From a virus (Duplodnaviria > Heunggongvirae > Uroviricota > Caudoviricetes), in the IMG/VR virus record IMGVR_UViG_2681813273_000007, positions 1-9,930 of that record: a stretch of DNA of 9,930 bases. One strand, 5' to 3'. A model generated the notes under the pieces. The model worked only from the letters and a program-made list of their open reading frames with translations, was not told the origin of the DNA and made no database searches. This document shows positions 1-9,930 of this stretch, piece after piece. The number at the start of each line of letters is the position of its first letter. The stretch's first letter is position 1. The position numbers were made by a program, and so were the translations under genes.

Positions 1-10
1 ATATCACTAT

Positions 11-39
11 TTACTTTTAAAAATAACAGTGCTATTAAT
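11..39 (+). promoter_or_regulatory. Candidate sigma70 promoter for the cro-like gene (-35 TTACTT 11-16, 17-bp spacer, -10 TATTAA 34-39)
   Basis: Hexamers read directly from the sequence upstream of the first ORF; the divergent repressor side is outside the window. No operator could be defined. Confidence 0.25.
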
Positions 40-72
40 TATGCATTGGTAACACATCACATAGGGCGGATT

Positions 73-336
73 ATGAATCTTGGAGAATATTTGCATCATT
101 TTCATATAACCCAGAGTTCATTTGCTGAGATTGTTGGCGCATCCCAAGGGATGGTCAGCCACGTTATAACGGGGCGTGCAAAACTTACAGGAGAAAAAAT
201 ATTACGTTGGTGTGAAGCAACGGGATGGGTGGTGACCCCACATGAGATTGACAGTAAAACCTACCCCAACCCAACTGACGGCTTGCCTGCTGAGTTTCAG
301 GCTAACACACAACCATCGGCGGGGGTTGATTCATGA
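73..336 (+). CDS. ydaS: Cro-like HTH DNA-binding protein, YdaS family (ATG at 73; the ORF track starts at an upstream TTG at 46)
   Basis: Helix-turn-helix signature SSFAEIVGASQGMVSHVITGRAKLTGEKILRW; small size; stop overlaps the start of the next gene (ATGA at 333-336), as in ydaS-ydaT pairs of Rac-like prophages. Family assignment from memory. Confidence 0.6.
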   Translation: MNLGEYLHHFHITQSSFAEIVGASQGMVSHVITGRAKLTGEKILRWCEATGWVVTPHEIDSKTYPNPTDGLPAEFQANTQPSAGVDS

Positions 337-758
337 AAATCAAGCATGAACACATCCGCATGGCGATGAAAGCCTGGGCGCATCCGGACGGTGAAAAAGT
401 TCCGGCAGCTGAAATAACCAGGGTTTATTTCGAACTGGGAATGACGTTTCCGGTTCTGCATAACGACAGCAAGCACAACACGCTTTATCTCAACACCCAA
501 AAGATTTTCCGTTGGCTGGATAAAGACACCCCTGACGCTGTTGAAAAAATTCAGGCGTTGTTACCTGCGATCGAAAGGGCAATGCCACCTCCGCTGGTGG
601 CTCGAATGCGCAGCCACAGTTCAGCTTATTTTCGGGAACTGGTGGAGACGCATGAACGACTGGTGAGAGACGCTGATGATTTTGTCGCAGTGGCAATCGC
701 CGGTTTCAATCAGATGAACCGTGGTGGCCCGGCAGGAAATGCTGTGGCAGTACATTGA
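333..758 (+). CDS. ydaT: YdaT-like protein (CII-like regulator of Rac-type prophages)
   Basis: 141-aa ORF starting MKIKHEH, translationally coupled to the upstream cro-like gene; position and size match the YdaS/YdaT pair. Family assignment from memory of the YdaT N-terminus. Confidence 0.55.
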   Translation: MKIKHEHIRMAMKAWAHPDGEKVPAAEITRVYFELGMTFPVLHNDSKHNTLYLNTQKIFRWLDKDTPDAVEKIQALLPAIERAMPPPLVARMRSHSSAYFRELVETHERLVRDADDFVAVAIAGFNQMNRGGPAGNAVAVH

Positions 759-829
759 CTGACAATAGCCATATCGAATCGCTCCCGGCAACTCGTGAGT
801 AAAAAGATTCGGTATCAGAAGAGGTGAGT

Positions 830-1894
830 ATGGCTAACGCCTGGCTCAGATTATGGCATGACATGCCAAATGACCCTAAGTGGCGAACAATTGCCAGGGT
901 GTCAGGGCAGCCAATTGCAACAGTGATGGCAGTGTATATCCACCTCCTGGTGAGCGCGTCACGAAATGTCACGCGAGGTCACATTGATGTCACGACAGAA
1001 GATTTGGCAAGTGCGCTCGACGTGACAGAAGAGGTAATTGATTCAATTTTGCAGACGATGCAGGGGCGGGTACTTGATGGTGATTTAATCACTGGATGGG
1101 AAAAACGCCAGGTGCTTAAAGAGGACAACGGCAATATTTCGCAAACCGCAAAATCTCCTGCAGAGCGCAAGAGGGCGCAGCGAGAGAGGGAAAGAAAGCG
1201 GGAACAAAATGGCGATTGTCACGGCGCGTCACGAAATGTCACGCACATGTCACGACGAGTCACGACAGATACAGATAAAGATACAGATAAAGAAGATCAA
1301 AACACTATGGTCCATGGCGTAAAAAACGCCACGAACCAGGCAGGGGATGTTCAGACCGTCAATCCTGGTCAGCCAGCAGGCTCGACACCGGAAGCCGATT
1401 CAGCGTATGCGCTGAAAGCCGATTCGGGCGCTGTGCAGCAGGTGATGACCGCAAGGCCGGAGCAATCACTCCAACTGCAGCAGCCTGAAGCCGATTCCGC
1501 CATTCAGCGGGAAGCCGATCGGGTAGCCCCGGAAAACACCGGGCAGCCTGTGGGACGAGTGGATTATCCGGATGTGTTCGAACAGGTCTGGCGGGAATAC
1601 CCGTTGCGTGCCGGGGCAAACCCGAAGAAATCCGCATTCAGTGCCTGGAAGGCCAGATTGCGCGAGGGGGTGCCACCAGAGACCATGCTGGATGGTGTGA
1701 GGCGTTACGCGAGATACCTGGCGGCGACCGGGAAAGCGGGAACGGAATTTGTTCAGCGAGCGACGACGTTTTTTGGGCCGGACCGGAATTTTGAAAACCC
1801 CTGGTTGCTCCCGGTAAGCGGCACGAACAACCAGCGTTGTGTGAATCATATTTCTGAACCGGATACCGAAATTCCGCCGGGATTCAGGGGGTGA
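830..1894 (+). CDS. Phage replisome organizer (lambda O analogue) with DnaT-like C-terminal domain; ATG 830 preferred, GTG 824 also possible
   Basis: RBS GAGGTG at 821-826; C-terminus ...VNHISEPDTEIPPGFRG resembles the C-terminus of E. coli DnaT as I recall it; gene sits immediately upstream of a DnaC-like gene; central region is low-complexity and repeat-encoded. Confidence 0.7.
   Translation: MANAWLRLWHDMPNDPKWRTIARVSGQPIATVMAVYIHLLVSASRNVTRGHIDVTTEDLASALDVTEEVIDSILQTMQGRVLDGDLITGWEKRQVLKEDNGNISQTAKSPAERKRAQRERERKREQNGDCHGASRNVTHMSRRVTTDTDKDTDKEDQNTMVHGVKNATNQAGDVQTVNPGQPAGSTPEADSAYALKADSGAVQQVMTARPEQSLQLQQPEADSAIQREADRVAPENTGQPVGRVDYPDVFEQVWREYPLRAGANPKKSAFSAWKARLREGVPPETMLDGVRRYARYLAATGKAGTEFVQRATTFFGPDRNFENPWLLPVSGTNNQRCVNHISEPDTEIPPGFRG
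954..1292 (+). repeat. Iteron-like repeats inside the organizer gene: GTCACG at 958, 968, 978 (GTCACA), 989 and again at 1218, 1228, 1238, 1249, 1259; a 21-bp direct repeat at 954-974 and 1224-1244; tandem ATACAGATAAAG x2 at 1269-1292
   Basis: Counted directly; spacing within each cluster is 10, 10, 11 (and 10) bp, about one helical turn; an inverted copy CGTGAC lies at 1020-1025; AT-rich tract follows the second cluster. Confidence 0.55.
1391..1534 (+). repeat. Four degenerate 24-bp repeats beginning GAAGCCGATTC (1391, 1415, 1487, 1511) encoding EADS/KADS/EADS/EADR peptide repeats
   Basis: Counted directly in the linker region of the organizer gene. Confidence 0.5.
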
Positions 1895-1900
1895 TGTGGC

Positions 1901-2647
1901 ATGAAAAACATTGCGGCAGCCGGGGTTCTTGAACGTATTCACAGACTTGCACCACAGGGGGCGGTTCCACCGTACCGGACGGTGGAGGAGTGGCGGGAAT
2001 GGCAACTTGCTGAAGGACGAAAACGCAGCGAGGAGATTAACCGCCAGAATCGCCAGTTGCGGGTGGAAAAAATCCTGAATCGTTCGGGCATCCAGCCTCT
2101 GCACAGCAAATGCTCGTTTGCGAATTATCAGGTGCAGAACGACGGGCAAAAATACGCGCTGAGCCAGGCCAAATCCATAGCTGACGAACTGATGACCGGG
2201 TGCACGAATTTTGTGTTCAGCGGTAAAACCGGCACCGGGAAAAATCACCTTGCAGCGGCGATGGGTAACCGGCTGATGGCGAAGGGGCGCAGCGTGATTA
2301 TCGTCACCGAGTCTGATGTCATGAGCGTGTTGCATGACAGCTACGACAACGGCAAATCCGGTGAAAAATTTTTACAGGAGCTTTGCGGGGTTGATTTGCT
2401 GGTCCTGGATGAAATAGGCATTCAGCGGGAGACGAAAAACGAGCAGGTGGTATTGCACCAGATAATTGATCGCCGGACAGCATCACTGTGCAGTGTCGGG
2501 ATGTTAACAAACCTGAATCATGCCGCAATGAGCACGCTTCTTGGTGAGAGGATTATGGACCGCATGACCATGAACGGTTGTCGGTGGGTGACGTTTAACT
2601 GGGATAGCTGGCGTTCAAATGTCAGCTTTCCGGGAGTTGTGAAGTAA
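1901..2647 (+). CDS. DnaC-like replicative helicase loader (phage P analogue, AAA+ ATPase)
   Basis: Walker A FSGKTGTGKNHLAAA and Walker B LLVLDEIG; overall strong resemblance to host DnaC as recalled; start 7 nt after the stop of the DnaT-domain gene. Confidence 0.85.
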   Translation: MKNIAAAGVLERIHRLAPQGAVPPYRTVEEWREWQLAEGRKRSEEINRQNRQLRVEKILNRSGIQPLHSKCSFANYQVQNDGQKYALSQAKSIADELMTGCTNFVFSGKTGTGKNHLAAAMGNRLMAKGRSVIIVTESDVMSVLHDSYDNGKSGEKFLQELCGVDLLVLDEIGIQRETKNEQVVLHQIIDRRTASLCSVGMLTNLNHAAMSTLLGERIMDRMTMNGCRWVTFNWDSWRSNVSFPGVVK

Positions 2648-2668
2648 TTTTTGTTGGAGGATGTTTTA

Positions 2669-3394
2669 ATGGAAACTGTATTTGACGCACTGAAAGCACT
2701 GAAAAGAGCCTCTTCACATGTGGTGGCGTCCCGCCTTGGAATCAGCCGTGAAGATGCGGTCAACGAACTGTGGAAACTGAAGCGCCGTGGTGAAGCGGAT
2801 AACAAGGGTTCGATGTGGTGGCTGATTCAGGCTGGTGAAAGTGAACCAGTGTCACCGGTACCGAAAGTGACAGCGCAAATGCTGACTGAGGCGATTGAAC
2901 AACATGGCCCACAAACGGCGGATGAGCTGGCACTGATGTTCGGGATTACCTCCCGCCGGGCGAATTCATCGCTGGCCATGGCAATCAGCAAAGGGCGTCT
3001 GATTCGCGTGAATCAGGGCGGTAAATTTCGGTACTGCATACCGGGCGCTGATTTACCGGCAGAGCCGAAAGCCGCATCCATAGCGGAAACGGATGGTAAA
3101 GTCTTTCCTCAGCCAGCAGGTGTTGCGTTACCGGTACAGGAAGCTGCAACACAGGAAGAAATTAAAACAGAAACTGTGGCGGACATTGTGCAGTCGTTGC
3201 CATCGTTCACCGAAACGCAAGCGGATGACCTGGTTTTACCATCGCTGCATATGGCAAACCGCGAACTGCGTCGGGCGAAAAGTCATGTCCAGAAGTGGGA
3301 GCGTGTCTGCGCCGCGTTGCGGGAGCTGAACAAGCACCGGGATATTGTTCGACAGATTGTCGATTCCTCCGGTCGTATTGTGTCGGAAAAGTGA
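2669..3394 (+). CDS. Hypothetical prophage protein, 241 aa, two winged-helix-like segments and a charged C-terminal region (ORF track starts at TTG 2651; ATG 2669 has GGAGG 8 nt upstream)
   Basis: Long ORF with a good RBS; no family recognised. It has no counterpart between the DnaC-like and Ren-like genes of the second module. Confidence 0.5.
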
Positions 3395-3409
3395 TTGCCG
3401 GGGGCGCTT

Positions 3410-3649
3410 ATGGCAAAAGTATTTACACAGGAAGAGCGGGAAAAAATTAAGGGGCAGGTTGTTGAACTCGTACGCCAGAGTGGGCGCGAGACGTTACGAC
3501 AACTGGAAGCTAAAACCGGGGCGACAAGATATTTAATAAGCGTTCTCGCCAGAGAGCTGGTTGCCAGTGGGGATGTATACAACTCTGGCTACGGGTTATT
3601 CCCGTCTGAACAGGCTCGTAAGGACTGGCAAAACGCCCGCAAAAAACTC
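3410..3649 (+). pseudogene. ren: 5' part of a Ren-like gene (module I), interrupted after codon 80; the reading frame runs on into IS600 sequence to a stop at 3697
   Basis: Encodes MAKVFTQEEREK...QNARKKL, collinear with the intact 140-aa paralogue at 6359-6781; homology ends exactly where the IS end begins. Ren assignment from memory of the lambda Ren C-terminus (see 6359-6781). Confidence 0.55.
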
Positions 3650-3693
3650 ATGAGGTGTACTGGCAATAGCGGACACTACCATTTGTTCTTTTT

Positions 3694-4512
3694 TTAAGCA
3701 GCCATCTGATGATATTTTTCCCTGAAGGCTGCCGGGGAGATATTCCCCAGACGAGAGTGACGACGCTGACGATTGTAGAAAATCTCAATGTATTCCCGTA
3801 TTACTGAGATGGCTTCATCCCGGTTATTAAAACGATAGTGGCTCAGGCTCTCATTTTTCAGCGTTCCCCAGAAGCTTTCCATCGGAGCGTTGTCGTAACA
3901 GTTACCTTTACGCGACATTGATGTTTTCAGACCAGACTGCTCCTGTATGACCCGGTAATCGTATGCGCAGTACTGTGAACCTCGATCAGAGTGGTGGATT
4001 AGCCCGGCAGGTGGGCGCTGGCTCCTGAGCGCCATAAACAGGGCTTTACCTGTCAGCTCTTTTGTCATGCGCTCTCCCATGGCGTAGCCGACAATTTCGC
4101 ACGTATAAACATCTTTGATGCCAGCGAGGTACAACCATCCCTCCTGTGTGGCAACATACGTCAGGTCCGCCACCCAGACCTGATTTGGTGCTGTAGGAGC
4201 GAACGTCTGGTTCAGCAGATTTGGCGCAACTGGCAGATTGTGGTTCGAGTTCGTAGTCGCTCTGAACTTGCGTTTCTGCTTACAGCGTAGCCTTAGCTCC
4301 TTACGAAGACGTGCCAGTCGGTCACGACCAACGATGATGCCATTCTCTGCCAGCTCCGTCTGGAGCCGCCGGGTTCCATATGTTTCGCGAGTGCGGATAT
4401 GTGCCACCTTAATCTCCAGTTTTAGCCGCTCATCACTTTGTTTTCTGTCTGAGGGTTCATGCTGTACCCAGTTGTAATAACCGCTCCTGGATACACCAAA
4501 TACCTGACACAT
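3694..4512 (-). CDS. IS3-family transposase OrfB (DDE catalytic domain); the true OrfAB product is made by -1 frameshifting near 4592-4599, so the OrfB frame extends upstream of 4512
   Basis: 272-aa ORF from the first in-frame Met; integrase-like core; overlaps orfA in the -1 frame. Confidence 0.9.
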   Translation of the reverse strand: MCQVFGVSRSGYYNWVQHEPSDRKQSDERLKLEIKVAHIRTRETYGTRRLQTELAENGIIVGRDRLARLRKELRLRCKQKRKFRATTNSNHNLPVAPNLLNQTFAPTAPNQVWVADLTYVATQEGWLYLAGIKDVYTCEIVGYAMGERMTKELTGKALFMALRSQRPPAGLIHHSDRGSQYCAYDYRVIQEQSGLKTSMSRKGNCYDNAPMESFWGTLKNESLSHYRFNNRDEAISVIREYIEIFYNRQRRHSRLGNISPAAFREKYHQMAA

Positions 4513-4547
4513 CGCTTCAATGGGAAATTGTTGTCGCCATTGTTCGA

Positions 4548-4850
4548 TTAACGCGTATTTTTCAGCGACTCCTGTGCAAAATACGCTGTTGCTTTTTTTA
4601 ATATATCTCGCTCAAGGCGAGCTTCATTTAACGCCTTACGCAGTTGCAGAATTTCAGATTCCAGTTCAGCCACCGTGCGGGAACCAGGAGTACCGAGCCC
4701 TTTTCTGGCGGCGGTAACCCATTGTCCTAAAGTGCCTTCAGGAAGAGATAATCGGGAAGCGCCTTCACTGATCGAAAGTTGATTTTCAAGAACCGTTCTG
4801 ACAGCTTCGGCTTTGAACTCTTTAGAGTAACGTTGGGTTTTTCTGCTCAT
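4548..4850 (-). CDS. IS3-family transposase OrfA (HTH, leucine-zipper part)
   Basis: 100-aa ORF MSRKTQRYSKEFKAEAV... with an AAGGAG RBS; the A7G slippery motif (reverse complement of 4592-4599) lies near its 3' end. Confidence 0.9.
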   Translation of the reverse strand: MSRKTQRYSKEFKAEAVRTVLENQLSISEGASRLSLPEGTLGQWVTAARKGLGTPGSRTVAELESEILQLRKALNEARLERDILKKATAYFAQESLKNTR

Positions 4851-4914
4851 TATTAGCTCCTTCTGATGCCATTCTATTTCAGGAAGGAGTGTCCGTTAAA
4901 CTCAGGCTACCTCA

Positions 4915-5591
4915 GGTTATTCGCTTCTGGGCATGGGCGGATCAACAAATGATAGACGGTAATGCAGATTGTAACGCTCGCGGCGTTACAAAAAGTGCAA
5001 TAGATCGCATCACTTTTATGTCTGGTTTTGCTGATGCGTTAATTCAGGTTGGATGGCTGGTCGAAAATGACGGAGGGCTTTCTCTACCTAACTTTGAACG
5101 TCATAACGGAAAAAGCTCTAAAAAAAACGGGCGGTTACAAACGAGCGAGTAACAAAAATACGCGAACTGAAACGAAAAGGTAACGCTGCCAGCGTTACAC
5201 AAACGGATCAAAAAGCGTTACCAGAGGAAGAGGAAGAGGAAGATCTAAATACTGATCTCCCCCTCGCCAAAAACGAGCGTCTAAAAAATTCGAGCCGGAG
5301 GCTATTGAGCTGCCCGATTGGTTGCCGGAAACACTCTGGCATGAGTGGGTCCGGTTCAGACAGGCATTGCGAAAACCGATTCGAACGGAGCAGGGCGCTA
5401 ACGGGGCGATACGGGAACTGGAAAAATTCCGTCAGCAGGGTTTTACACCTGAGCAGGTGATTCGACACAGCATCGCCAATGAATACCAGGGCCTGTTCGC
5501 GCCGAAAGGTGTTCGGCCTGAGACGTTGCTCCGACAGGTTAACACCGTCTCGTTGCCGGACAGTGCGATCCCGCCAGGCTTCAGGGGGTAA
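4915..5591 (+). pseudogene. 5'-truncated, frameshifted replisome-organizer/DnaT-domain gene (module II)
   Basis: Begins abruptly at the IS end; three reading frames must be joined (switches inside A8 at 5120-5127 and A6 at 5283-5288) to obtain one protein ending ...VNTVSLPDSAIPPGFRG, the same C-terminal motif as the module I gene. Confidence 0.7.
4959..5221 (+). repeat. GTAACGC-type repeats in the module II organizer gene: 19-bp palindromes GTAACGC-N5-GCGTTAC at 4971-4989 and 5180-5198, half-sites at 4959-4965 (GTAATGC) and 5215-5221
   Basis: Counted directly; they occupy the same relative part of the gene as the GTCACG clusters of module I. Confidence 0.45.
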
Positions 5592-5597
5592 CGGACC

Positions 5598-6344
5598 ATG
5601 AAAAATATTGCGACAGGCGGCGTTCTGGAACGCATCCGCCGACTGACCCCGCCACATGTAACCGCCCCATTCAGAACGGTAGCGGAGTGGCGCGAGTGGC
5701 AACTTGCTGAAGGCCAGAAACGTAGCGAGGAGATCAACCGCCTGAATCGCCAGTTGCGGGTGGAAAAAATTCTGAATCGCTCAGGCATCCAGCCGTTGCA
5801 CCGTAAATGCTCGTTTGCGAATTACCAGGTGCAGAACGACGGCCAGCGATACGCGTTAAGCCAGGCGAAATCCATCGCCGATGAACTGATGACCGGGTGT
5901 ACAAATTTTGCGTTCAGCGGAAAACCTGGTACCGGGAAGAATCACTTAGCGGCAGCTATCGGGAATCGCCTGCTGAAAGACGGTCAGACAGTGATTGTGG
6001 TTACCGTGGCTGATGTTATGAGCGCCCTGCACGCCAGCTATGACGACGGGCAGTCAGGCGAAAAATTTTTGCGGGAGCTGTGCGAAGTGGATCTGCTGGT
6101 TCTTGATGAAATTGGCATTCAGCGCGAGACGAAAAACGAGCAGGTGGTGCTGCACCAGATTGTTGATCGCCGGACAGCGTCGATGCGCAGCGTGGGGATG
6201 CTGACAAACCTGAACTATGAGGTGATGAAAACATTGCTCGGCGAGCGGGTGATGGATCGCATGGTCATGAACGGCGGGCGCTGGGTGAATTTTAACTGGG
6301 AGAGCTGGCGTCCGAATGTTAGCCATTCGAGGGTTGTTAAGTAG
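5598..6344 (+). CDS. DnaC-like replicative helicase loader, second copy (about 85 percent identical in protein to 1901-2647)
   Basis: Walker A FSGKPGTGKNHLAAA, Walker B LLVLDEIG; collinear with the first copy. Confidence 0.85.
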   Translation: MKNIATGGVLERIRRLTPPHVTAPFRTVAEWREWQLAEGQKRSEEINRLNRQLRVEKILNRSGIQPLHRKCSFANYQVQNDGQRYALSQAKSIADELMTGCTNFAFSGKPGTGKNHLAAAIGNRLLKDGQTVIVVTVADVMSALHASYDDGQSGEKFLRELCEVDLLVLDEIGIQRETKNEQVVLHQIVDRRTASMRSVGMLTNLNYEVMKTLLGERVMDRMVMNGGRWVNFNWESWRPNVSHSRVVK

Positions 6345-6358
6345 TTTCAGGAGGATTT

Positions 6359-6781
6359 ATGGCGAAACCTTTTACTCCCGAACAGCGGGAAGAACTGAAG
6401 ACGCGAATTGTGGAACTCGTGCATCAGGACGGTCGGGTCACGATTCGGCAGTTGTCAGATGAAACAGGTATCAGTCGTGCGTCTGTCGGTCGCTTATGCA
6501 TAGAACTGGTCGCAAGTGGTGATGTATATAATTCTGGCTACGGCTTATTCCCGTCTGAACAGGCTCGCAAGGACTGGCAAAGCGCCCGCAAAAAACTCTC
6601 GAGAGTAAAGGTGAGGAAACCGGTTGTTGTTGATCCGGACCTTATCTGGTCATTACCTGACGGAGAAATACGCCGCTACGACAGGCGCCTGAATATAATC
6701 TGTCGCGAGTGCCGGAAGAGCGAAGCTATGCAGCGTGTACTGGCTTTCTATCAGGGTAATTTTCAGGAGGCGATACTGTGA
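6359..6781 (+). CDS. ren: Ren-like protein (module II), intact, 140 aa
   Basis: Strong RBS AGGAGG at 6348-6353; N-terminal winged-HTH-like segment and a C-terminus ...ICRECRKSEAMQRVLAFYQG that matches lambda Ren (...KECRQSAAMKRVLAVYG) as I recall it; position after the P-like gene as in lambda. Confidence 0.5.
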   Translation: MAKPFTPEQREELKTRIVELVHQDGRVTIRQLSDETGISRASVGRLCIELVASGDVYNSGYGLFPSEQARKDWQSARKKLSRVKVRKPVVVDPDLIWSLPDGEIRRYDRRLNIICRECRKSEAMQRVLAFYQGNFQEAIL

Positions 6782-6838
6782 ATGAAATTAGCTATCAGGC
6801 TTCAATTACCGCTGGCATTCGCATCAAAGGAGAGGAGC

Positions 6839-6952
6839 ATGGAAATAAAACGATATTGCTTAACTCATCTTCTGGTTTTATTTCCGGTAAAAGAGGATGA
6901 CCCTCGTAATCAGGTTAATTTTCTTTATGAGCCATCGGAAAGACCATATTAG
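6839..6952 (+). pseudogene. Truncated 5' fragment (37 codons) of the small Cys/coiled-coil gene, module II allele
   Basis: MEIKRYCLTHLLVLFPVKEDDPRNQVNFLYEPSERPY then a stop at the junction; same RBS and start context as the intact gene at 7215. Confidence 0.45.
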
Positions 6953-7157
6953 GCAAAACGCCCGCAAAAAACTCTCGAGGGCAAAGCTGAAGAAACCATC
7001 TGTGGTTGATCCGGACCTTATCTGGTCATTACCGGACGGAGAAATACGCCGCTACGACAGACATCAGAACATAATCTGTCGCGAGTGCCGGAAGAGTGAA
7101 GTTATGCAGCGTGTACCGGCTTTCTATCAGGGTGATTTTCAGGAGGCGGTACTGTGA
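6952..7157 (+). pseudogene. ren: 3' part of the split module I Ren-like gene
   Basis: Encodes QNARKKLSRAKLKKPSVVDPDLIWSLPDGEIRRYDRHQNIICRECRKSEVMQRVPAFYQGDFQEAVL; its first 23 bp (6952-6974) are identical to 3627-3649, the last bases of the 5' part before IS600. Confidence 0.6.
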
Positions 7158-7214
7158 GTGAAATTAGCTATCAGGCTTCAATTACCGCTGGCATTCGCAT
7201 CAAAGGAGAGGAGC

Positions 7215-7571
7215 ATGGAAATAAAACCAGAAGATGAGTTAAGCAATATTGTTTTATTTCCGGTAAAAGAGGATAACCCTCGTAATCAGGTTAATTTTCT
7301 TTATGAGCCATCGGAAAGACCATATTGCCATCACGCTTCTGTCCGGGTTGACGAAAAAGAGCGTCAGGTCCGCTGTAAAATTTGCGGTGCAGTTGTGGAG
7401 CCATTTGACTGGATGCTCTCTGTGGCGAAAAGAGAAACCAGACTGGCAGATGATGTAAGGCTCTTGCGCCAGGAGGAGCGGGAAAGGCGAAAAAATATAG
7501 AAAAGCTAATCCAGATTGAGCGTAATGCGAAAGCGCGGATACGCAGGGTGACAAAATATAGCCCCGAATAA
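7215..7571 (+). CDS. Hypothetical small protein, 118 aa, Cys/His cluster (C-H-H ... C-x2-C) followed by a charged coiled-coil-like C-terminus
   Basis: Strong RBS AGGAG at 7203-7210 with ATG at 7215; the ORF track begins at an upstream in-frame codon (7158), which I do not prefer. Confidence 0.5.
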   Translation: MEIKPEDELSNIVLFPVKEDNPRNQVNFLYEPSERPYCHHASVRVDEKERQVRCKICGAVVEPFDWMLSVAKRETRLADDVRLLRQEERERRKNIEKLIQIERNAKARIRRVTKYSPE

Positions 7572-7785
7572 TCAAGGTTATTTCTGGAAGTCAAGTCGTG
7601 AGTGATGAGGACTAACAAATACGGTGAACTCGATAAAGAGATTCAGGACGAACTGGAGGCCAGGAATGATTGACAAATCACCAAGTGAGTTCAGCTACAA
7701 AGATTTATTGTCATAACGGGTTATGAGATCGACTTGGTGCGTGATATTCTTCGGGCCAGTTTGCTATGCGCCACCATGAGATGTT

Positions 7786-8223
7786 ATGGCCCGCATGTTT
7801 GATACATTAGGATTTTACATTATGAATGTGCAACATTTTGATTTTTTTACAGATAATGAGTTTTCTAATCTGGAAAGATATCAAACTTGTAAAGCCATGG
7901 CCAAAGGTTATGCGGGCAATTACAAAACCGGGCAGTCAAGGTTGATGCATGCCCGCTCATACTGCTTCAGCATCGTAGCTGCATATTGGGATACACGGGT
8001 TGACGAAAAAGAGCGTCAGGTCCGCTGTAAAATCTGCGGTGCGGTTGTGGAGCCGTTTGACTGGATGCTCTCTGTGGCAAAAAGAGAAACCAGACTGGCA
8101 GATGATGTAAGGCTATTGCGCCAGGAGGAACAGGAAAGGCGGAGAAATATAGAAAAGCTGATACAGATTGAGCGTAACGCGAAAGCGCGGATACGCAGGG
8201 CGACAAAATCCAGAACTGAATAA
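7786..8223 (+). CDS. Hypothetical paralogue of the 118-aa protein: different N-terminal half, near-identical C-terminal 75 aa (alternative start ATG 7822 with AGGA 8 nt upstream)
   Basis: DNA 7996-8208 is about 95 percent identical to 7343-7555; upstream parts are unrelated. Confidence 0.45.
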   Translation: MARMFDTLGFYIMNVQHFDFFTDNEFSNLERYQTCKAMAKGYAGNYKTGQSRLMHARSYCFSIVAAYWDTRVDEKERQVRCKICGAVVEPFDWMLSVAKRETRLADDVRLLRQEEQERRRNIEKLIQIERNAKARIRRATKSRTE

Positions 8224-8370
8224 TTAAATTTAGCACTGTTAAAAATTTAATCCTTAACCGGAGGGATTTCTGCACCCTCAAATCATCAGGAGACCACCCG
8301 AAAGGGCGGGGAGCAGTCACACATCTGTTTCCGATAGCCCCGTTCTAATGCTACACTCTTTGATATTTTT

Positions 8371-9057
8371 ATGACCCCAATAAACATATTTATGACAGTT
8401 GCTGATTTCAAACGGCCCAAATTGGAGCTCCCAAACGGGGCAAACAAACTACTACTGCACTCTTGCTGTGCTCCATGTTCCGGTGAGGTGATGGAGGCGC
8501 TTCAGGCCTCGGGAATCGACTACACCATCTTTTTCTACAACCCGAACATTCATCCTCAGAAAGAGTATTTAATTCGTAAGGATGAGAATATTCGCTTTGC
8601 TGAACAACACGGCGTGCCGTTTATTGATGCTGATTACGACACAGACAACTGGTTTGAACGAGCCAAAGGAATGGAATGGGAGCCCGAACGAGGGATCCGT
8701 TGCACCATGTGTTTTGACATGCGTTTTGAGCGGACAGCGCTGTACGCCGCTGAAAATGGTTTCAGTGTGATCAGCAGTTCACTGGGCATTTCACGCTGGA
8801 AAAATATGCAGCAGGTTAACGACTGTGGGCGGCGAGCCGTCGCGCATTATCCGGGCATGGTGTACTGGGATTATAACTGGCGCAAGCAGGGCGGCTCGTC
8901 CCGTATGATTGAAATCAGCAAGCGCGAAAAATTCTATCAGCAGGAATATTGTGGCTGTGTGTATTCTCTGCGCGATACCAATCTACACCGCAAATCTCAG
9001 GGACGCCCTCTTATCAAAATTGGTCAACTCCACTACGGTAAAGAAGAGAAGGAGTGA
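8371..9057 (+). CDS. queH: QueH-like protein (DUF208 family, epoxyqueuosine reductase-like); start may be the internal ATG at 8392
   Basis: N-terminal [11 protein letters not shown] motif plus later Cys pairs (CTMC, CGC), which I recall as the DUF208/QueH signature; 228 aa is the expected size. Not verified by search. Confidence 0.55.
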
Positions 9058-9116
9058 TTTTATGGGGCACCTTTCTGATTGATTTCATATTGGCGAGGTA
9101 AGTAGAATGACTGCGG

Positions 9117-9284
9117 GTGCTTGAGGCTATCTGCTTCAGGCATGAACACCAAAAGGCAGATAGAGAAAAGCCCCAGTTAACATTACGCGTCCGGCAAGAC
9201 GCTTAACATTAATCTGAGGCCAATTTCATGCTTTGCACATGTAGGTTAGCCTCTTACATGCCGAAAGGCAAGGAGAAGCAGGCT
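9117..9284 (+). promoter_or_regulatory. Leader of the hok-family mRNA (predicted 5' folding elements)
   Basis: Sequence GCTTGAGGCTATCTGC...GCAGATAG forms an 8-bp stem (9127-9134 with 9156-9163) and resembles hok mRNA leaders as recalled; precise 5' end not determinable. Confidence 0.4.
9180..9260 (-). ncRNA. sok: Predicted sok-like antisense RNA overlapping the mok start region (position approximate)
   Basis: Inferred only from the conserved organisation of hok/sok loci; I could not define a convincing promoter or terminator on the minus strand. Confidence 0.25.
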
Positions 9285-9440
9285 ATGAAGCAGCAAAAGG
9301 CGATGTTAATCGCCCTGATCGTCATCTGTTTAACCGTCATAGTGACGGCACTGGTAACGAGGAAAGACCTCTGTGAGGTACGAATCCGAACCGGCCAGAC
9401 GGAGGTCGCTGTCTTCGTAGACTACGAATCCAGGAAGTAA
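9228..9440 (+). CDS. mok: Mok-like reading frame (in-frame N-terminal extension of hok)
   Basis: 70-aa ORF MLCTCRLASYMPKGKEKQA followed in frame by the Hok peptide, as in chromosomal mok/hok pairs. Confidence 0.55.
   Translation: MLCTCRLASYMPKGKEKQAMKQQKAMLIALIVICLTVIVTALVTRKDLCEVRIRTGQTEVAVFVDYESRK
9285..9440 (+). CDS. hok: Hok/Gef-family type I toxin, 51 aa, single transmembrane helix
   Basis: MKQQKAMLIALIVICLTVIVTALVTRKDLCEVRIRTGQTEVAVFVDYESRK is very close to HokC/HokD as recalled; AAGGAG RBS 10 nt upstream. Confidence 0.85.
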   Translation: MKQQKAMLIALIVICLTVIVTALVTRKDLCEVRIRTGQTEVAVFVDYESRK

Positions 9441-9517
9441 GAGTGACCGGGCGGGGAGCTGATCCCATCCCCGCCCACCTCTGATGTGTCAGGCATCCTC
9501 AACGCACCCGCACTTAA

Positions 9518-9560
9518 CCCGCCCATCGCTGTGATCTCTCAGCGTTTCGGCGGGTTTTTT
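9518..9560 (+). terminator. Candidate intrinsic terminator / hok mRNA 3' element (CCCGCC ... GGCGGG stem followed by T6)
   Basis: Stem arms at 9518-9523 and 9549-9554, T run 9555-9560; the loop is long (25 nt), so this is a weak call. A tighter hairpin GGGCGGGGA/TCCCCGCCC lies at 9450-9478. Confidence 0.4.
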
Positions 9561-9699
9561 GTTGTTTATTTCCGGTGAATTTGATTCGCGCACCTTCGCA
9601 GATAGAATCGACTCACTTAAGTAGCGCGCAGGGAGAAGAGGGATGGACCCCGAACAGGGGAGAGCTATTTATCTGGAAGGATTCTGAAGATGAAAATCG

Positions 9700-9930
9700 A
9701 AGAATTGCGTGAAATTTTTAGTGAAAATGGCCTCTATGCTGTGCGCGTTGAGAATGGAGCGATTGTCAGCCATTGCCGCATTAGATGTTTGCAATCTCAA
9801 CAAAGGAAGAGCGGTGCTGTGTTATTTTATTTTTGTAATGGACTTCTGACGGACGGTTTTATTTTGCGTGAGGACGAATTTGTCACATCATTACGGGTTT
9901 TGAAAGAGATAGGTTTTAAGGCTGGTTTTC
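9700..9930 (+). CDS. 5' part of an unrecognised gene running off the window end (MKIEELREIFSENGLYAVRVENGAIVSHCRIRCLQ...)
   Basis: Open frame of 77 codons from an ATG with AAGGA upstream and no stop before the window edge; absent from the ORF track because it is unterminated. Confidence 0.35.

Follow-up and report, generated by a model that had tools for sequence, protein, structure and literature searches.

Background

Among lambdoid phages, each initiator matches, through the N-terminal domain of its O protein, the repeats of its own origin, and these repeats lie inside its own gene. The present analysis concerns a viral sequence of 9,930 nucleotides (Caudoviricetes; IMG/VR record IMGVR_UViG_2681813273_000007, positions 1 to 9,930), referred to in its entirety as the window, in which two Rac-like lambdoid replication modules are linked through a single insertion sequence (IS) element. 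The initiator, or organizer, gene of the second module (module II) contains two 19-bp palindromes of the form GTAACGC-N5-GCGTTAC, accompanied by separate half-sites. It was considered about 75% probable that these palindromes and half-sites are the cognate binding sites of the N-terminal domain (N-domain) of a Rac-like winged-helix initiator, here called class A, and that together with an adjoining purine-rich tract they constitute a phage replication origin inside the initiator gene.

The lambda/Stx origin consists of iterons and an AT-rich tract placed centrally in gene O (PMC7466680). Each lambda iteron has 7-nt inverted arms around a 4–5-nt spacer (ATCCCTC-AAAAC-GAGGGA), and an A/purine-rich tract follows the array. 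A k-mer census of lambda gene O recovered the four annotated iterons at +349..+433; lambda itself was taken as the positive control because none of the other organizer classes described below belongs to the Pfam lambda-O family. The module II sites resemble ori-lambda in several respects. The lambda origin, like the presumed one here, falls between the codons for the N- and C-terminal domains (+349..433 in lambda; about +368..410 of the intact gene for the region of the second palindrome); the unit measures 19 bp, its inverted arms 7 nt and its spacer about 5 nt; next come an A/purine-rich tract and then a loader gene; and specificity is modular. Unlike lambda, however, the class-A protein is not a detectable relative of lambda O, and its N-domain models as a winged helix of the DnaD-NTD/CRP-like kind; its gene has a single full palindrome and half-sites among the linker codons, a further cluster some 210 bp upstream within the N-domain codons and, where intact, another palindrome at -33; and the part of lambda P is taken by a DnaC-like AAA+ loader. 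A lambda-type array of at least four tandem iterons is lacking in module II, while module I has five repeats and some class-A relatives (L085) have five phased half-sites. Similarly, the tract adjoining the sites is clearly AT-rich in module I (GC 0.275), but in module II it is purine-skewed with a GC content of 0.45. The arrangement is therefore known in kind, being lambdoid initiator/iteron modularity in a different initiator family.

A second comparison is offered by phage SPP1, where the oriL direct repeats to which gp38 (G38P, 'replisome organizer') binds are part of gene 38 itself, beside an AT-rich unwinding element, with the helicase loader and helicase encoded downstream (PMC6316719). 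The name used in RefSeq for the module I type of protein is 'phage replisome organizer', although neither organizer in the window had a significant match to the SPP1-type organizer family in Pfam. Unlike class A, SPP1 has direct repeats, and a second SPP1 origin lies approximately 13 kb away. The Rac prophage has been reported to contain an active origin, oriJ (PMC3945230). A literature search returned passing mentions of oriJ or of origin mapping at ydaU, and no sequence-level map of oriJ. The Rac ydaU-ydaV segment is 93% identical to module II in nucleotide sequence: positions 4915-5600 had 93% nucleotide identity with ydaU of phage Rac (MN652886) and with a gene of vB_EcoS-666R9 (ON470614) annotated 'DNA replication protein O', and the gene order of phage Rac (HTH, YdaT, organizer, DnaC-like YdaV, DUF1627, DUF977) was the same. 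YdaU of the K-12 type differs in having another N-domain (class B, DUF1376) and another repeated word, TGTTCAA. Finally, the initiators of iteron plasmids (F RepE, P1 RepA, pPS10 RepA, R6K pi) have a WH1-WH2 pair where the class A and E proteins model with a single winged helix; the sites described here also differ in being inside coding sequence, and in belonging to a phage module with a dedicated loader, and no sign of handcuffing or copy control was seen.

Palindromes and half-sites in the module II initiator gene

The first-pass annotation of the window had reported two palindromes with additional half-sites in module II; both palindromes were exact and were the sole matches in the window. 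Pal1 (4971-4989; GTAACGC-TCGCG-GCGTTAC, GTAACGCTCGCGGCGTTAC) codes for 'CNARGVT' in a loop of the N-domain, while Pal2 (5180-5198; GTAACGC-TGCCA-GCGTTAC, GTAACGCTGCCAGCGTTAC) codes for 'GNAASVT' in the disordered interdomain linker. Even with up to two mismatches allowed, there were 2 matches to the 19-bp palindrome, against an expectation of 0.03 from dinucleotide-preserving shuffles, none of which (0/200) reached 2. The heptamer GTAACGC occurred 8 times in the window where 0.92 occurrences were expected, and five of the eight lay within 4971-5221.

The half-sites were also recovered, one being exact and two having a single mismatch. The exact copy (GCGTTAC, minus strand, 5215-5221) is isolated, 23 bp after the right arm of Pal2, and further reverse half-sites follow Pal2 in relatives, at +382 in L084 and at +379 and +391 in L085. 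The degenerate copy at 4959-4965 (GTAATGC, plus strand) is 12 bp upstream of Pal1; GTAATGC is the class-A consensus at this point, and GTAACGC was found in a minority of intact relatives (e.g., L001 and L002). The other degenerate copy, GCGTTAA at 5036-5042 on the minus strand, corresponds to codons (G77-V78) that are fixed as GGC GTT, that is, GCGTTA, in a metagenomic clade.

The last half-site is followed by a purine-rich (GAGGAA)n tract of poly-Glu codons (5222-5257, plus strand), a candidate DNA-unwinding region; GC skew was +0.44 and AT skew +0.46 over 5215-5254. Across the census, purine fraction after class-A sites had a median of 0.87 at about +383. The poly-Glu (EEEEEED; 5222-5245 in the window) or EKRRE stretches of these initiators, observed also among relatives L083-L088, are coded by the purine-rich repeat after the sites; like the loop peptides described below, this peptide may be a by-product of an element that acts at the DNA level.

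The sites had been assigned to an organizer gene, which is correct as regards its type but not its integrity. Nucleotide identity and translations placed 4915-5591 (plus strand) in class A ('MASNWIKLEV'), as a remnant that is truncated at its 5' end and twice frameshifted. When aligned with intact genes of 262 aa, the first ~104 nt (~35 codons) were gone and the IS element IS600 stood in their place. A run of eight A residues at 5120-5127 (plus strand), where intact genes have six, produces a +2 frameshift, such that the N-terminal frame stops at 5152; a 10-bp deletion right after 5257 produces the second frameshift. The remnant consists of three successive reading frames with no intact open reading frame (ORF). 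The module II initiator gene is a pseudogene, so there is no functional initiator/site pair at this locus, and the sites persist solely as cis elements, their cognate initiator no longer being supplied in cis.

Intact class-A genes have a third GTAACGC-N5-GCGTTAC palindrome, Pal0, which lies 33 bp upstream of the ATG and adjoins the ribosome-binding site. It was seen at L001:1195-1213 and at more than 40 other class-A loci with variable spacers (TGCGA, TGTGA, TTACA); the window copy does not have it, Pal0 having been lost through the IS600 cut. The top word in the intact class-A gene was in excess of codon shuffles (P = 0.005). The best PHROG match of an intact class-A relative was phrog_2509, 'replication initiation protein' (E = 9e-89).

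Repeated words follow the organizer class

The relationship between repeats and N-domains was evaluated across 80 viral loci, which were collected via their conserved YdaV and from which the gene directly upstream was taken out. Upstream of YdaV proteins that were 94–100% identical, the organizer N-domains fell into five classes, either unrelated to one another or related only distantly, and every class had its own over-represented word. In all classes the words clustered at nt ~350–490, and classes A, B and E had a second site or cluster at nt ~130–190. The class-by-word table was diagonal across the five N-domain classes: GTAACGC palindromes in class A, the module II type; TGTTCAA in class B, which comprises K-12 YdaU and is the only class with DUF1376 (E = 2.7e-26; absent from all window proteins); TTGACCC(GT) at 15-bp spacing in class C (HTH_36); AGGTCAAAATG at 23-bp spacing in class D (no Pfam hit); and GTCACG in class E, the module I type. 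Classes A and B have near-identical YdaT upstream and YdaV downstream, and yet their words differ; therefore, it is the organizer segment that the word goes with, rather than the regulators on either side. Within 444 kb of flanking phage DNA, every GTAACGC-N5-GCGTTAC palindrome was inside a gene or pseudogene of class A, or else just ahead of one.

The remaining classes also provided individual arrays. Class-B genes (L039:2137-2994 and 11 other loci) have (A)TGTTCAA(A) at +149, +393 and +426, plus an inverted copy at +452; the two-place layout recurs here, and the copies are candidates for the iterons of oriJ, the Rac origin. In class C, TTGACCC(GT) is repeated four to five times at 15-bp spacing (L068:2379-2460), followed by an A-rich tract, and in class D there are four to five copies of AGGTCAAAATG at 23-bp spacing (gene positions +392..+495 of L063).

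Distant relatives and constraint at the DNA level

A protein search with the class-A N-domain produced relatives down to 41% identity. The DNA was read for six of these, from Enterobacter, Pluralibacter and metagenomes, with N-domain identities of 72–45%; their downstream partners were DnaC-like loaders, DnaB-type helicases, a primase-helicase or other genes. The palindrome was kept in all six, at +149/+160 and at about +356 to +413, and 2/6 had it also at -33. The spacers were unrelated, and the reading frame of Pal2 varied (L084, L086). Pal0 was missing in several relatives (L084-L087), while both intragenic clusters were always present, and a (AGAGGAAG)n or (AGAGAAGA)n tract followed the sites in all relatives examined. 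In L085 (gene +149..+397) the half-site itself had changed in concert to GTAACGG/CCGTTAC, in five copies that included unpaired half-sites; its linker region has five half-sites, three forward and then two reverse, 11–12 bp apart.

The converse search was a DNA-pattern scan of viral contigs, defined by the palindrome, a distance of 175–205 nt and GTAACGC, with no protein criterion. All of the 120 loci obtained (120/120) code for a class-A N-domain over the sites, and 237 of their 239 palindromes were in or adjoining the class-A gene. Site density was 7.9/kb within -50..+520 of the gene and 0.42/kb outside, with two sharp peaks at +125..200 and +325..410, in each of which forward sites preceded reverse sites. 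Sites did not occur at similar density elsewhere, an outcome that would have spoken against an initiator-specific role, and the two palindromes in the window are the sole matches there.

Codon usage over the palindrome arms was evaluated with a sample selected by protein patterns outside the palindrome, comprising 59 distinct N-domains with pairwise identities of 0.46–0.99. (A first test of codon bias, made on the motif-selected loci, was dropped as circular, those loci having been chosen by the motif itself.) In the protein-ascertained sample, codons in the arms were practically invariant: GGT 59/59, AAC 57/57, AGC 54/54 and GTT 57/59. For most other conserved Gly and Val columns the share of the top codon was 0.36–0.70, the exceptions being G77 and V78, which constitute another GCGTTA half-site. 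Wobble positions just outside the arms were far less constrained (GCT 0.81), and the Thr codon after the right arm was too variable to tabulate. These codon frequencies indicate that the palindrome arms are under selection at the DNA level, beyond what the protein code requires.

The sites are thus non-random, specific to one gene family, constrained as DNA and variable in step with the N-domain. The first-pass annotation had proposed that the two modules contain initiator/iteron pairs of different specificity; judged comparatively, from the diagonal table of classes and words, the 120/120 loci, wobble fixation and concerted change of the word, this proposal is well supported.

Module I repeats and the class-E family

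The GTCACG direct repeats attributed to module I were present in two phased clusters. GTCACG occurs at 958, 968, 989 and, inverted, at 1021 (with GTCACA at 979), and again at 1218, 1228, 1238, 1249 and 1259. Cluster 1 (957-1027, plus strand) consists of (T/C)GTCACG in direct orientation from 957, 967, (978) and 988 and the inverted copy at 1021-1027, and codes for the N-domain loop SRNVTRGHIDVTT. Cluster 2 (1217-1264, plus strand), in the linker codons, consists of five direct (T)GTCACG repeats spaced by 10, 10, 11 and 10 bp, which are presumed iterons. The phasing of 10–11 bp corresponds to one helical turn and all three reading frames are used; the count of GTCACG is 9, a value reached by none of 1000 codon shuffles. 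Directly after cluster 2 there is an AT-rich, A-skewed tract (1265-1310, plus strand; AGATACAGATAA x2, a tandem 12-mer), a candidate DNA-unwinding element. Positions 1270-1309 have the lowest GC content of the module I gene (0.275) and an AT skew of +0.52.

The repeats of the two modules had been said to occupy equivalent positions. In the protein alignment, both clusters of modules I and II were at the same places, corresponding in structure models to the 46-56 loop of the N-domain and to the interdomain linker. Alignment-based AlphaFold models were made of P0019, a class-A relative, and of the N-domain of module I. Both N-domains modelled as winged helices with an equal order of elements and nearly equal boundaries (helices at 16-25, 29-45/46, 56-64 and 67-77, the second and third being separated by a loop at ~46-56, and a final beta-hairpin), and in the models a disordered linker connects the single winged-helix domain to a C-domain specific to the partner. 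According to these models, cluster 1 (Pal1) codes exactly for the 46-56 loop and cluster 2 for the disordered linker. The N-domains had also been described as diverged. Their model topologies coincide, although comparison of class A and class E profiles was only suggestive (hhalign probability 29%, P = 6e-4); it is likely that the two diverged from a single domain.

Relatives of class E were sought with the N-domain of module I, and the DNA of four (L089-L092) was read; it has clusters at about +130–160 and +350–420, each of three to five direct repeats phased at 10 bp. The word differed by lineage, being GTCACG at 73% identity, GTAACGC at 57% and CGAACGC at 54%, and the variable-loop peptide of class E (RNVT..VTT, MNQERGVTQCNA, NATERGRTQ) was a translation of the local word. 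In L090 the class-A word GTAACGC occurred as 10-bp-phased direct repeats at +151, +161, +332, (+342) and +352; the word is therefore equal to that of class A, but its arrangement is direct instead of 7-N5-7 inverted.

A proposed origin and its alternatives

On the reading that we favour, the palindromes and half-sites being initiator binding sites and part of an origin, initiator dimers would bind the 7-N5-7 palindromes with the geometry seen in the lambda iteron. The main array would be that in the linker codons (Pal2 at 5180-5198, the half-site at 5215-5221 and degenerate sites), with Pal2 as the core of the presumed origin, and the (GAGGAA)n tract beside the sites would be destabilised. The variable C-terminal domain would then recruit a partner, here the DnaC-like YdaV, which would deliver host DnaB. 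Pal1, in the loop codons of the DNA-binding domain, and Pal0 are probably auxiliary or looping sites, or autoregulatory. Module I would follow a like design with another word, its phased direct GTCACG repeats being followed by the tract of 27.5% GC. We infer both protein binding at these sites and the firing of replication from them from the comparative patterns described above.

Several points weigh against this reading. A literature search yielded no binding, footprint or replication experiment on this initiator family. Neither organizer matched a Pfam family at E < 0.01, including the Phage_rep_O family of lambda O; Pfam and NCBIfam were uninformative for both, the sole match being a weak one to a DnaT C-terminal tail, and a match to a PHROG family named 'replication initiation O-like' involved the linker/C-terminal part only (residues 85-236, E = 2e-25). 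In E. coli class-A genes, half-site columns showed no significant excess of conservation over the rest of the gene (variable in 4/42 against 58/442), although this is a weak test because class-A genes within E. coli are too similar; only the spacers stood out there, being hypervariable (8/15; P = 0.001 when set against half-sites). In these genes cluster 2 consists of a single full palindrome with half-sites, where lambda has four tandem iterons, and the tract that follows the module II sites, while purine-skewed, is not strongly AT-rich at a GC of 0.45. Since the sites are located in or beside the DNA that codes for the N-domain, physical linkage alone accounts for part of their co-occurrence with it; repetition, wobble fixation and concerted change of the word are stronger evidence than co-occurrence. 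Lastly, the reading offers no firm account of Pal1 and Pal0; the second cluster, coded within the loop of the DNA-binding domain, together with the upstream palindrome of class A, is the one feature that goes beyond the textbook picture.

Among the alternatives, the best surviving, albeit unlikely, is that the palindromes are operators for autorepression or tuning by initiator dimers and that the true origin is elsewhere. Rep dimers of iteron plasmids (pPS10, F, P1) repress their own genes at inverted repeats, which is the form found here, and the position of Pal0 beside the ribosome-binding site of intact class-A genes, 33 bp ahead of the ATG, would suit such a function. However, a promoter scan identified no sigma-70-like promoter over Pal0, and Pal0 is dispensed with in L084-L087 where the intragenic clusters are always kept. 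Furthermore, the main cluster is at the position of the lambda origin and is succeeded by a purine/A-rich tract, and the sister family, class E, has phased direct repeats, which is the form of iterons. Operator and origin roles are not mutually exclusive and can coexist.

It is much less probable that the sites are bound by a protein other than the organizer, whether a phage regulator (YdaS/Cro-like, YdaT or a repressor) or a host factor. Such regulators are encoded just upstream in Rac-like modules, and 7-N5-7 palindromes are typical operators of dimeric helix-turn-helix proteins. Against this, classes A and B have different words alongside near-identical YdaT and YdaV, the palindrome is kept amid unrelated upstream and downstream genes and in different hosts, the motif-selected loci code for a class-A N-domain in 120 cases out of 120, and the word shifts together with N-domain divergence, both in L085 and in class E.

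The least probable explanation, that the repeats are incidental or act as RNA (through a recurring peptide motif NAxxVT, hairpins in the mRNA, a terminator on the antisense strand, or chance), could draw on the common codon phase and similar peptides of Pal1 and Pal2 in E. coli (CNARGVT, GNAASVT), on the stable RNA hairpins that each palindrome forms (z = -3.0 and -4.1) and on the terminator-like score of Pal2 followed by CTTTTCGTTT on the minus strand, but Pal0 is non-coding, Pal2 is in other frames in L084 and L086, wobble bases are fixed in the arms and much less constrained just outside, unpaired and directly repeated half-sites are conserved and have changed in concert, the module I repeats at equal positions are direct, in three frames and without RNA structure (z = +1.05), the count of terminator-like sites equals the chance expectation, and only 0.03 palindromes are expected by chance. 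RNA folding was set aside as uninformative, since any perfect palindrome folds. The T-run of the terminator-like site on the minus strand is the complement of Lys/Arg-rich codons.

A wider proposal is made tentatively, and may well not hold in full: that phage winged-helix initiators of classes A and E, from Escherichia to diverse metagenomic phages, form a broad family with a bi- or tripartite origin in its own gene, in which one array occupies the linker codons and a second occupies the codons of a surface loop of the DNA-binding domain and dictates the loop peptide (RNVT..VTT, NATERGRTQ, GNAxxVT), and in which the word and its direct or inverted arrangement switch by lineage. Such a family would be a natural library of orthogonal initiators and origins, and a case where DNA function overrides coding in a folded domain.

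If the binding-site and origin reading is correct, these sites are sequence-level candidates for the origin and the specificity determinants of Rac-like prophage replication modules, which abound in E. coli and Shigella with no annotation beyond 'hypothetical', 'YdaU' or 'replisome organizer'. It would extend the lambda rule, by which N-domain and iterons co-vary as an exchangeable module, to another winged-helix family with many natural specificity variants; it predicts which prophages can cross-activate each other's origins, and suggests origin/initiator pairs that may be orthogonal. An intact class-A initiator acting in trans could still fire the relic in module II, although the direct biological importance of this locus is small, because it is a decayed remnant.

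Layout of the window

Module I begins with an HTH protein (46-336) and a YdaT-like protein (333-758), followed by the intact class-E initiator/organizer of 354 aa (830-1894, plus strand; phrog_3729, 'replication initiation protein') and a DnaC-like loader (1901-2647), then DUF1627 and then a DUF977 gene that ends abruptly at 3650. The adjacent element, IS600 (3651-4914, minus strand; IS3 family, 1264 bp), was identified by NCBIfam transpos_IS3 and by the RefSeq name 'IS3-like element IS600 family transposase'; its terminal inverted repeats are imperfect and 27 nt long, and it contains transposase ORFs of the IS3 family. IS600 interrupts the DUF977 gene on its left (3650) and the module II initiator gene on its right (4915), and its flanks, TCA and GGT, are without a 3-bp target-site duplication. 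Given that there is no target duplication and that a different gene is cut on each side, the modules probably came together when IS600 copies recombined or the DNA between them was deleted, rather than by simple insertion. The right junction, between IS600 and the remnant, was also found in four viral-contig loci (L003, L006, L008 and L010), which was interpreted as a circulating allele; the left junction was not found in them, and the whole arrangement of the window was absent from complete E. coli genomes in RefSeq.

The partner gene of module II, ydaV, is an intact DnaC-like helicase loader (5598-6344, plus strand; Pfam IstB_IS21/Bac_DnaA). It is 81% identical to the module I copy and 92–94% identical to YdaV of phage Rac and vB_EcoS-666R9. 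Farther downstream there are two pairs of direct repeats, 6576-6851 with 6952-7227 (276 nt, 92% identity) and 7344-7580 with 7996-8232 (237 nt, 91%). These duplicate the 3' part of the DUF977 gene plus a downstream ORF, a sign that the prophage remnant has undergone further rearrangement or duplication. Positions 8371-9057 hold a QueH-like gene (epoxyqueuosine reductase). Finally, there was an Rfam match to the sok antitoxin RNA at 9115-9290 on the plus strand (117 bits, gathering threshold 59), and this overlaps a 70-aa hok-type ORF (9228-9440, plus strand) that is annotated as hokD in related genomes.

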